Assembly: GCA_036679645.1 (NCBI GenBank)
Contig: JAZDCY010000014.1
Span: 192,001-256,000, forward strand
Source of the DNA: Gemmatimonadota bacterium
GTDB lineage: Bacteria; Gemmatimonadota; Gemmatimonadetes; Gemmatimonadales; GWC2-71-9
DNA: 64,000 bases
Direction: 5' to 3'
How positions within the stretch are numbered: position 1 is the first letter of the stretch; every line of letters starts with the position of its first letter. The position numbers were made by a program, and so were the translations under genes. A model generated the notes under the pieces. It saw only the letters and a program-made list of their open reading frames with translations, had not been told where the DNA came from and did no database searches. Of this stretch, positions 19,327 to 20,831 are shown one piece after another.

Positions 19327-19402
19327 ATGACGTCAGTTGATCGTCTCATCGAGGCCCTGGCCGACCGCTACCGCGTCGAACGCGAACTCGGTCGCGGCGG
19401 GC
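19327..19402 (+). pseudogene. 5' fragment of Ser/Thr kinase gene
   Basis: MTSVDRLIEALADRYRVERELGRGG then abrupt loss of similarity. Confidence 0.7.
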
Positions 19403-19406
19403 AATG

Positions 19407-19438
19407 GAAAAGCCAGGCGGCACTGAGCCACCCGGCTT
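19407..19438 (-). terminator. Terminator-like hairpin closing the tRNA-like transcript
   Basis: AAGCCGGGTGGC-TCAGT-GCCGCCTGGCTT followed by TT on minus strand. Confidence 0.55.
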
Positions 19439-19522
19439 CCCTCGGCGTAGCGAGTCTGGCTACGCAGCGGCACTCCGTGTCTCAAAGGTATGGTTCGGCG
19501 TGAGCCGAGTCAACGCGGTGGG

Positions 19523-19606
19523 TGCTGGCGGTGGGATTCGAACCCACATGGGCTTGCGCCCCACGGAGTGCCGCTCCGCTGCGTCTGCCAATTCCGCCAC
19601 GCCAGC
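19523..19606 (-). tRNA. tRNA-Leu-type body with atypical anticodon loop (GCGGCAC, nominal anticodon GGC)
   Basis: GCTGGCG/CGCCAGC+A73, D arm GGCGGAATTGGCAGACGC, long variable arm GGGC-GCAA-GCCC, T arm GTGGGTTCGAATCCCAC; lacks U33. Confidence 0.8.
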
Positions 19607-19762
19607 ACCACAACGGCAGCGAACCATGGCAGCCCAAAGGCCGAAGACGCGGGAGATCGTACCCGATGCCGACCGCCCGACCATGATAGCACCGTCGGTG
19701 CGCAGCGTTGGTACCATTTCGTTGCCGACTCTACCAAAGCCACGCACGGAGGCCGCCTAGTA

Positions 19763-20125
19763 ATGGGCGTCGCTGAGAGCCTGGCGTCCGCACTCGCCGA
19801 CCGCTACCGCGTCGAACGCGAACTCGGCCGCGGCGGCATGGCCACCGTCTACCTCGCCGAAGATCTCAAACATCACCGGCAGGTCGCGCTTAAGGTCTTG
19901 CGGTTTGCCAGCGTAGCCGAGGTCAAGAACCGGCTATCCGAGTATCTAGCCAGGGCCCGGCGGAAGAACGAGCCCATTATCGTCACTTACCACGGCAAGC
20001 CTTACGCCTTGATCCAGCCCCTTTCGGAACAGGATCTGGAGGAGTTGGAATGGAGGGAATTGGCGACGACGCGCTTGGCCGGCGCATGGGAGGGTGAGAA
20101 GGACGCCCTCTATGACTACCTATAA
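19763..20125 (+). CDS. Phd/YefM antitoxin fused in frame to a Ser/Thr kinase 5' fragment (antitoxin part starts ~19898)
   Basis: ALADRYRVERELGRGGMATVYLAEDLKHHRQVALKVL joined to RFASVAEVKNRLSEYL...PIIVTYHGKPYALI. Confidence 0.75.
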   Translation: MGVAESLASALADRYRVERELGRGGMATVYLAEDLKHHRQVALKVLRFASVAEVKNRLSEYLARARRKNEPIIVTYHGKPYALIQPLSEQDLEELEWRELATTRLAGAWEGEKDALYDYL

Positions 20126-20294
20126 ACGCGGTCAGGTCGTCGTGGTCGACGTCCCGTTCTCGGGTGGGTCGGGCTCCAAGCTTCGGCCCGCCCTCGTCAT
20201 CAGCGCCGAGACCTTCCACCGAGACCTTCCCGACGTGATCGTCTACCCTGTCAGCAGCCAGCCTCGCTATTACGATCACGCTAGATCGGCTTGA
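20112..20294 (+). pseudogene. PemK/MazF toxin, 3'-truncated
   Basis: YKRGQVVVVDVPFS..SKLRPALVIS; only 60 aa, runs into convergent gene. Confidence 0.8.
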
Positions 20295-20831
20295 ACAGCT
20301 CCGTCAACGCTAGCTCGAACGGCGCGCCCGTTCCCGAAGGCACCCATTCAATGTGCTCACGCTCTTCGTGCGGAACCGTCGCTTCCGGAGTCCACACTTC
20401 GACCACTTGGGCATCCGGATCCACGATCCAGTAGAGCGGAATCCCAACTTCCTGATACAGGCGTCGCTTTGTGAATCGATCGTAACGGGCAGTCGACGGG
20501 CTCAACACCTCGACCGCGAGTTGGAGATGCTGCATCCGCGACCAGTCCATGGTCCGGGCTTCCTCGAGATCGACCACGAAGAGATCCGGTTGCACGAGAA
20601 TATATCCGGACCCCACGAGATGTCGGCTGGAGAAGCGAGCAGGTGCCCGCACGGCTCTGTCTCCAGATAGCGAAAGAGAGCGCTATGGAGCCGACCGACC
20701 ACGGTTTGGTGCCAGGCCCGCGGCGCGGGCGTCACGAGGAGTTCGCCGTGGACGGTCTCGTACCGTTTGCCGTCGTCGGGAAGGGCTCGGACCATGTCCG
20801 CAGTGTGGTACAGAGGAGCGGCCATACCCAT
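20281..20831 (-). pseudogene. Uma2 family endonuclease, frameshift near 20600
   Basis: LPDDGKRYETVHGELLVTPAP...HQ in one frame; VQPDLFVV, LAVEVLSPST, KRRLY, YWIVDP in the next. Confidence 0.85.

Follow-up and report, generated by a model that had tools for sequence, protein, structure and literature searches.

Among the tRNA genes of one Gemmatimonadota bacterium is an intact gene that joins the body of a leucine tRNA to an alanine anticodon. It lies in the 64,000-nucleotide stretch of DNA analysed here (contig JAZDCY010000014.1, positions 192,001 to 256,000; hereafter the window), at positions 19523..19606 of the minus strand. What such a tRNA does, and how its host can carry it, is the question that this locus raises.

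The window tRNA

The window tRNA is a Leu-bodied class II tRNA with the anticodon GGC, and the predicted toxin of the module described below. G1 is at 19606 and A73 at 19523, and CCA is not encoded. ARAGORN labels the gene tRNA-Ala(GGC), and it scores 47.4 bits against Rfam RF00005. Bacterial Leu identity consists of A73, A20a, tertiary contacts and a large variable region, the anticodon being no element of it (PMC9976931 Table 1, in the part of that source available). The window tRNA has all the features of a Leu body (A73, A20a within a Leu-type D loop, U8:A14, A15:U48 and a large variable arm, here of 15 nt). It lacks the tRNA-Ala determinant G3.U70, having U3-A70 in its place, and it also lacks both a Leu anticodon (NAG or YAA) and U33. 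The anticodon loop reads GCGGCAC (G32, C33, GGC at 19572-19570, A37 and C38). The D loop, long variable arm, A73, anticodon loop and U3-A70 of the original prediction are borne out by the sequence, ARAGORN, Rfam and the predicted fold. In that fold G32 pairs with C38 and a 5-nt loop is left; because this pair can close and position 33 is C, the window tRNA may decode poorly. Canonical bacterial tRNA-Leu (RF00005) and the window tRNA are alike in the D loop, variable arm, T arm, A73 and C2-G71. Unlike canonical tRNA-Leu, the window tRNA has a non-Leu anticodon, a conserved leader, an antisense partner and an arm sequence at 27-43 that varies across the family.

The genome (4.05 Mb, 64% GC, 92.7% complete) has complete sets of normal tRNAs, with all five for Leu, three for Ala and three for Val, and a bacterial-type LeuRS gene (205-aa part scanned). 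The window tRNA is therefore extra, and a role as stand-in for a missing tRNA is rejected. A Logan contig of depth 118 shows 0 differences from 19362-19825; as it probably comes from the source sample, it is a re-assembly and not an independent strain. Assembly error, which the original prediction had named as a possible origin of the odd loop, is rejected by this identity as far as contigs show.

Organization of the module

The original prediction was right about the odd tRNA and missed the other half of the element, an antisense unit downstream of it. Upstream, a predicted extended -10-like element for the tRNA transcript (19683..19691, minus strand; assigned from sequence and family position) ends 76 nt before G1, much as had been proposed. 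Among the matches listed (the family survey is described below), 49 of 100 modules, vs 20 of 109 normal Leu tRNAs, have a TAnnnT that ends 70-85 nt upstream of G1, with a peak at 73-79 nt in the modules. Between this element and the tRNA is a 5' leader of about 70 nt (19607..19677, minus strand) that is conserved in alignments. Its last three bases can pair with tRNA positions 73-75 and extend the acceptor stem; all three extra pairs are available in 78 of 100 modules among the matches listed, a count partly forced by the search pattern. A leader profile detects two of the five copies in this genome at E<0.001 and two more weakly. The duplex of leader and tRNA 5' half has a mean z of -1.38, vs 0.02 in controls. 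The leader as main folding block is not supported (31% vs 34% with shuffled leaders).

Downstream, a small RNA of about 75 nt is predicted to start about 45 nt beyond the window tRNA, behind a sigma-70-like promoter. This promoter has a predicted -35 box TTGACT (19508..19513, minus strand), placed by a family-wide promoter score, and a predicted -10 box TACCTT (19485..19490, minus strand; 3/6 consensus only), with a 17-bp spacer. The small RNA begins with a 14-nt antisense seed as its predicted 5' end (19466..19479, minus strand), which is the exact complement of the tRNA anticodon loop and flanking stem. A hairpin follows (19445..19465, minus strand), and then a strong GC hairpin with a short U run, the predicted intrinsic terminator (19403..19441, minus strand; unit z -3.16). 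The sequence of the first hairpin is in addition the complement of the D arm and the 5' strand of the acceptor (tRNA nt ~4-26), so that the small RNA over its full length is a mirror of the tRNA 5' half. No terminator was found between tRNA and antisense, and the GC hairpin would, by prediction, end both the small RNA and read-through from the tRNA. A generic promoter and terminator scan of the window copy returned 0 sites, the -10 box being below its threshold.

This arrangement recurs across the family. Among the matches listed, the downstream promoter scores at least 8.5 in 99% of 102 modules vs 28% of 117 Leu controls, its spacer is 17 in 81 of the 102, and the base opposite tRNA position 34 lies 11-16 nt past the -10 box in 94. 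The terminator stem has compensatory changes at 10 of 11 pairs (60 sequences); a clear U-rich tail follows it in only 53 of 102 modules among the matches listed. Predicted pairing of the small RNA spans tRNA nt 5-41 in most of 100 modules among the matches listed. In predicted folding, none of the 102 read-through RNAs among the matches listed forms the cloverleaf, vs 29% with shuffled trailers and 58% for the mature tRNA. Neither leader nor small RNA has an Rfam family at the gathering threshold or a credible one at E<=10, C4 included, and no conserved ORF was found in the modules.

Copies in the same genome

The genome has five Leu-bodied odd tRNA genes, with the anticodons GGC, GAC, GAC, CGC and GGC. 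In each case the complement of the gene's own anticodon arm lies 44-85 nt downstream, after TTGnnn-17-TAnnnT, and is followed by a hairpin and terminator. A run of 14 or more unbroken pairs, G.U included, is found in the 300 nt downstream of 6 of 47 tRNA genes in the genome, all six identity-mismatched (these five and one His-bodied gene); the best of the other 41 has 13 pairs. A covariance model of promoter plus small RNA, for which 60 of 94 sequences were used, recovers all five copies and a sixth antisense unit. This unit is an orphan (one of six), its tRNA being reduced to the 3' end. It lies at L300:2779-2950 (plus strand; contig C47 of this genome), 2 kb from an intact module and with a short tandem repeat just upstream. 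At C7:130361-130442 (minus strand) there is also a Leu-like body whose anticodon loop is damaged and whose downstream complement is weak (7 nt), perhaps a decayed module or pseudogene.

The small RNAs of this genome make 14-19 pairs with their own odd tRNA; against 39 canonical tRNAs their best is 8-11. For the window small RNA, predicted net binding is -22.7 with its own tRNA and -1 to -9 with native Leu and Ala tRNAs. Cross-binding to two Ala-type sister tRNAs in the genome is predicted at -17 and -20, so specificity is not absolute among the Ala-type copies. For native tRNA-Ala(GGC), binding of -16.6 kcal/mol is predicted with one of the five small RNAs.

The His-bodied gene is a short tRNA with G-1 and C73, which we take to be His identity, and a Gly (GCC) anticodon (C28:57347-57418 = L297:5348-5419, minus strand). 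It has an 18-pair downstream antisense and a terminator. A homologue (L303, genome G071), from one of 150 phylum genomes, has the anticodon GAU (Ile) and its own wobble-rich antisense, promoter and terminator; the His-bodied version is known from these two examples. About 900 bp from the His-type module is a Leu-type body with a very long variable arm, the Pro anticodon UGG and G37 (C28:56342-56443 = L297:4343-4444, minus strand), with an IS1595 transposase and a GIY-YIG-like ORF nearby. A search within 300 nt of this body gave no antisense.

Distribution and anticodons of the family

A pattern scan of GTDB that forced a pyrimidine at 36 and A37 matched at least 119 stretches. The matches listed hold 114 distinct bodies, of which 15 were dropped (short flanks or broken 3' halves) and 99 were usable. 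An exact downstream complement of at least 8 nt is present at 89 of these 99 vs 1 of 119 same-bodied normal Leu tRNAs. The single control, a normal tRNA-Leu(CAA) with a 9-nt arm complement 43 nt downstream (L245), is probably a chance case. Nine relatives were added to the GTDB set, giving 106 distinct intact tRNAs among the matches listed. An antisense was anchored for 102 of these, and the 4 misses are all outside Gemmatimonadota. Among the 102, L051 is a chance anchor and L084 is without a unit; L051 was dropped for a set of 101 and both for a set of 100. The latter, at least 100 modules, come from about 72 genome labels. Among the matches listed, 96 of the 100 belong to Gemmatimonadota or kin of this genome, 1 has no rank and 3 sit in bins under other names, possibly through misbinning; the named relatives are Gemmatimonadota. 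Modules occur patchily, in 15 of 40 relatives, with 1-7 copies each.

The 102 anchored tRNAs among the matches listed have the anticodons CGC (36), CAC (29), GGC (9), GAC (8), CUC (7), GGU (4), GUC (4), AGC (2) and UUC, CGU and UGC (1 each), which are those of Ala, Val, Glu, Asp or Thr. The codons read (GCG, GAG, GCC, GAC, GUG, GUC and ACG) rank 1, 2, 3, 6, 7, 10 and 12 in codon use of the genome. No Gly anticodon was found in the Leu-bodied family among the matches listed, though GGC is the fifth commonest codon. Of the same 102, A73 is present in 100, U48 in 100, a 15-nt variable arm in 95 and G3.U70 in 0; the search pattern itself required U8, A14, A15 and A20a. Also among these 102 listed, a 7-nt loop with a 4-5-pair stem is found in 100 and C36 in 97, position 33 is U in 71 and C in 31, and A34 (2) and G32 (3) are rare.

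These counts bear on several earlier claims. That the changes are confined to the loop does not hold for the family, in which the anticodon arm is variable throughout and C33 is common (31 of 102 among the matches listed). The view that they are unlike random decay is strengthened, since the family keeps A73, U48 and the 15-nt variable arm, never has G3.U70 and uses anticodons that fit the commonest G-starting codons. The same features and choice of anticodons lend sequence-level support to the suggestion that the window tRNA may be leucylated and misread Ala codons. The 37 members with Val anticodons (of 102 among the matches listed) carry A35, C36 and A73, the main Val identity set according to the available part of PMC9976931 (Table 1), and so could be Val-charged and harmless.

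A scan for purine 36 in 301 phylum genomes gave 16 matches, namely 15 true Leu tRNAs and one deleted module that resembles an amber suppressor. Among at least 122 metagenome bodies, the same scan gave 120 Leu anticodons, 2 poor or intron-type parses and no intact member. In IMG/VR, 20 loci hold 21 Leu-like bodies, none with a complement of more than 7 nt. A phage-borne family is rejected on this count (0 of 21 IMG/VR bodies with antisense) and by 0 viral loci for the His-type pattern. Two further kinds of locus were observed in the searches. L051 and L135 are a different array, with tandem Leu-like bodies (anticodons CGC and GCC) on an Alphaproteobacterial chromosome and without antisense. L118, L133 and L179 are Leu tRNA genes interrupted at the anticodon, presumably by group I introns.

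Specificity and co-variation of the antisense

When the 106 downstream regions among the matches listed are ranked for each tRNA, its own comes first in 84 cases and within the top three in 99. The mean duplex energy is -26.0 for cognate pairs vs -13.6 for non-cognate pairs and -9.8 kcal/mol in 117 Leu controls (among the matches listed). Predicted net binding in trans is -24.1 kcal/mol for cognate vs -8.1 for non-cognate partners in the modules among the matches listed. With anchoring done without positions 33-36, Watson-Crick pairs occur at 33, 34 and 35 in 94, 96 and 97 of 102 modules among the matches listed vs 56, 55 and 41 expected, kin in the family counts not being independent. On a tree built without the arm, which is weakly resolved (8 of 99 branches starred), the anticodons of the modules among the matches listed need 56 changes vs a shuffled mean of 57.2. 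One starred clade of 13 rows in this tree holds five anticodons. Because the anticodons are scrambled on the arm-free tree, the match of anticodon and antisense reflects repeated co-change. At positions 28-38, the imperfect pairs are G.U in 47 cases vs A.C in 11 (101 modules among the matches listed), and a Watson-Crick-only anchor gives the same registers. This excess of G.U points to RNA pairing on the transcribed strand and not to a DNA palindrome. Pairing of the two RNAs, and restraint of the tRNA by the small RNA, are very probable.

One-sided loss

An antisense-first survey of 40 relatives gave 43 matches, from which 1 weak full-length and 13 partial matches were left out. The remaining 29 convincing full-length matches, in 15 of the 40 relatives, lie beside an intact tRNA in 20 cases, a broken or remnant tRNA in 6 and none in 3. 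All 20 intact tRNAs have C36 and A37 (17 scored 12-17 pairs and 3 were matched by eye), and 9 of 29 antisense genes are without an intact tRNA. The reverse, an intact tRNA without antisense, occurs in 1 of 101 cases among the matches listed. This counter-example (L084) has a Val anticodon and keeps the leader, and is without the downstream promoter or antisense. Among the matches listed, the GTDB set adds 7 broken tRNAs (six T-loop repeat insertions and one deletion), of which 4 keep an 11-14-nt antisense. Loss of the tRNA is tolerated and loss of the antisense rarely so, which is the pattern expected of toxin and antitoxin.

The T-loop insert is a palindromic repeat of 50-70 nt (L061, L117, L123, L136, L139, L159, L316 and L322). 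It is apparently an undescribed small mobile repeat that targets the T-loop sequence and so inactivates the tRNA. In L163 the 3' half of the tRNA and the antisense promoter are deleted; the 5' half is fused to the small-RNA hairpin and terminator and mimics an amber anticodon.

Gene neighbourhood

Of 135 neighbour ORFs, 131 were scanned. These nearest ORFs include 18 Ser/Thr kinases, 6 parts of type II toxin-antitoxin systems (a raw share of 6/131), 3 Uma2 nucleases, 2 transposases and 1 ArgRS. No conserved partner protein, integrase or cas gene was found among the 131 proteins, nor any synthetase other than the ArgRS. A dedicated partner protein is rejected, as none recurs. The earlier idea of non-ribosomal aminoacyl transfer finds no support here, the 131 neighbours holding no recurring transferase or dedicated synthetase. 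Of 68 genes that come next downstream, 40 lie on the other strand; the next genes belong to unrelated families and are not conserved.

The window module lies between two 5' fragments of Ser/Thr kinase genes (19327-19440 and 19763-20125, plus strand), the second of which continues in frame into a Phd/YefM antitoxin. Elsewhere, too, no neighbour is commoner than the start of a kinase gene (18/131), which hints at an insertion preference. A PemK/MazF-like ORF (20112-20294, plus strand) is cut at 60 codons by a convergent Uma2-family gene (20281-20830, minus strand), which is itself frameshifted and split over two frames.

Proposed model

The module is probably an RNA-only toxin-antitoxin system (probability roughly 0.6), in which the toxin is a leucylated missense tRNA acting at GCC/GCU and the small RNA is its antidote. 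The anatomy, the identity elements, the co-variation and the one-sided loss are features of the loci themselves; the promoters, the self-inhibited precursor and the duplex enter the model as predictions. The upstream promoter is predicted to make leader, tRNA, spacer, antisense and terminator as a single transcript of about 275 nt. This transcript would fold back without a cloverleaf, and only 3'-trimmed precursors would mature; the need for 3' trimming would delay toxin production, as in type I systems. The free RNA of about 75 nt is predicted to seed on the anticodon loop by its unpaired 5' end and then to zip into the D arm and acceptor strand. The duplex would block maturation or be sent to decay.

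For the later steps (trigger, leucylation, decoding and toxicity) we infer the following. If the antisense supply dropped (locus loss, transcription shut-off or phage infection), stable mature tRNA would remain. It would be charged by the ordinary LeuRS, which ignores the anticodon, and would corrupt proteins at very frequent codons. Fast turnover of the arm, tracked by the antisense, would give each copy its own lock and key, which would explain why several copies coexist per genome. In this pair the tRNA appears to be under regulation, by an antisense RNA of its own, which reverses the earlier idea of a regulatory or decoy mimic.

Reports on other odd tRNAs bear on toxicity in both directions. 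In the available parts of the sources, natural missense allo-tRNAs that insert Ser for Leu killed E. coli (PMC5389517), and tRNAProX mistranslates although it is without U33 (PMC11415595). In yeast, tRNA-Leu variants with AGC, CGC and UGC anticodons reduced growth to 35, 54 and 67%, and the CUC variant yielded no transformants, while the GGC variant, with the anticodon of the window tRNA, had no significant growth defect (PMC11028032, available part). His-charged irregular tRNAs and allo-tRNA(UAU) species were unused in E. coli translation (PMC5389517 section 16, as available).

With the pair and its addiction logic kept, harm might arise without Leu insertion: the tRNA might be charged and unused, might sequester LeuRS, EF-Tu or RNase P, or might enter the A site uncharged at frequent codons and cause stalling or a stringent response. 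One-sided loss and co-variation are independent of decoding, and C33 (31 of 102 among the matches listed), the varied bases at 32 and 38 and the charged yet untranslated irregular tRNAs reported in the available part of PMC5389517 all suit such harm. It is nevertheless unlikely, given that the 7-nt loop, stem and C36 are kept and the anticodons fit the commonest codons (among the matches listed), and that A73 and variable-arm length are kept as for LeuRS. A host-beneficial switch, whose antisense holds mistranslation off until stress or phage attack and whose Ala-, Val- or Glu-to-Leu misreading then slows growth, spoils phage proteins or diversifies the proteome, is distinctly unlikely. It overlaps the model above and differs mainly in the beneficiary. 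Chromosomal location without an attached mobility gene (the 131 neighbours include 2 transposases and no integrase), absence from all 21 bodies of the viral scan and maintenance across the whole order agree with it, but patchiness, copy-number variation, dead tRNAs with surviving antisense and the lack of a fixed neighbourhood fit selfish modules at least equally.

That the complement works in cis only, as fold-back control of tRNA maturation or as a tRNA-regulated leader of a downstream gene (T-box-like or phage C4/CI-like), is very improbable; the read-through RNA is predicted to fold back in 102 of 102 modules among the matches listed, but a separate promoter stands 11-16 nt before the base opposite 34 in 94 of the 102, the unit closes with a terminator, the next gene is unconserved and on the opposite strand in 40 of 68, and antisense units persist without a tRNA. 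A DNA-level inverted repeat without RNA function (an invertible segment, an integration scar or a template-switch correction) is highly improbable. Arm and mirror are indeed inverted repeats about 75-90 bp apart, L163 resembles a deletion between tRNA and mirror, and template switching could help the mirror to keep pace. DNA pairing, however, would not distinguish G.U (47) from A.C (11, among the matches listed), the mirror is flanked by a fixed promoter and terminator, no inverted form was seen by eye in the loci inspected, and no recombinase is among the 131 neighbours. Reversed roles, with the small RNA as effector against host Ala or Val tRNAs and the odd tRNA as decoy, are scarcely credible: the -16.6 kcal/mol predicted for one of five small RNAs with native tRNA-Ala(GGC) is the point in favour, against 14-19 nt of pairing with the own odd tRNA and at most 8-11 with 39 canonical tRNAs, arms that vary freely as host tRNAs do not, and antisense genes that outlive the supposed decoy.

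The modules may, with odds somewhat better than even, represent a widespread and previously undescribed protein-free class of addiction or defence element with a code-breaking tRNA as toxin and an anti-anticodon RNA as antitoxin. In this class the arm would be a rapidly re-keyed lock, the element would have arisen on at least two anticodon-tolerant bodies (Leu, and His with G-1:C73), and the proteomes of host and phage alike would be corrupted once antisense decay set the tRNA free. If the proposed model is right, there would be a toxin-antitoxin system with a code-rewriting tRNA as toxin and a natural small RNA that silences a tRNA via its anticodon arm. The occurrence of 'isotype-mismatched' or 'pseudo' tRNA genes in bacteria would be accounted for in at least one family, and the question of how natural missense tRNAs, some lethal in E. 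coli, are carried would have a testable answer. Annotators miscall the family genes as Ala, Val or Glu tRNAs. A protein-free, re-keyable module of about 290 bp would also be a compact switch for controlled mistranslation.

Comparison with known systems

No description of a tRNA paired with its own anticodon-directed antisense RNA was found in the open full-text literature (titles and abstract starts), and as far as searched the two-RNA module is previously undescribed. tRNAProX/ProRSx of Streptomyces and Kitasatospora resembles the window tRNA in natural bacterial dual identity, Ala anticodon included, and in loss of U33, and tRNAProX tRNAs mistranslate in E. coli (PMC11415595, available part). 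tRNAProX has a Pro body, A34 and a co-encoded synthetase, whereas the module has a Leu body, C34 or G34, no dedicated synthetase nearby and an antisense partner; the word antisense is absent from the available part of PMC11415595. The allo-tRNAs and irregular polycistronic tRNAs of Acidobacteria are like the family in their mismatch of identity and anticodon and in having toxin-antitoxin genes nearby, and they include some lethal missense suppressors and G-1 His-identity members with a foreign anticodon (PMC5389517, available part). They have 8/4 or 9/3 acceptor/T stems and Ser or Ala identity, whereas the window tRNA has a standard 7/5 Leu body without an 8/4 or 9/3 branch in its fold; 'antisense' and 'complementary' are absent from the main text of PMC5389517 as available.

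A conserved co-oriented downstream gene, as in T-box or C4/CI systems, was not found beside the modules, the downstream families being unrelated. In C4 of phages P1 and P7 and CI of P4, an RNase P-processed tRNA-like RNA pairs with its own primary transcript and regulates downstream genes. There the tRNA-like RNA is the regulator, whereas the module tRNA has true identity elements, appears to be regulated and has no conserved downstream gene. The type I system hok/sok has a self-inhibited transcript activated by 3' trimming, an antisense with an unpaired 5' seed and several non-identical copies per genome; its toxin is a protein from the target mRNA, whereas the target RNA of the module is a tRNA. 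In SdsR-RyeA (type VIII) both partners are RNA and neutralisation is by base pairing.

According to the available part of PMC12737573, CreT resembles an mRNA and acts by sequestering a rare tRNA, and its promoter is repressed by CreA via Cascade. CreTA and the module are alike in that both partners are RNA and the toxin hits translation through tRNA. Unlike CreTA as described there, the module has a mismatched-identity tRNA as toxin candidate, an antidote that pairs with the anticodon arm from a same-strand tandem unit, and no conserved protein; no cas gene is among the 131 neighbours, and the antidote is a tRNA mirror, not crRNA-like. As in type VIII, the module has two linked non-coding units with predicted promoters and no protein component, and specificity of the antitoxin for its toxin is indicated by co-variation and binding predictions. 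Should toxicity and rescue be confirmed, the module would by definition be nominally type VIII, with a way of working like that of neither described member.
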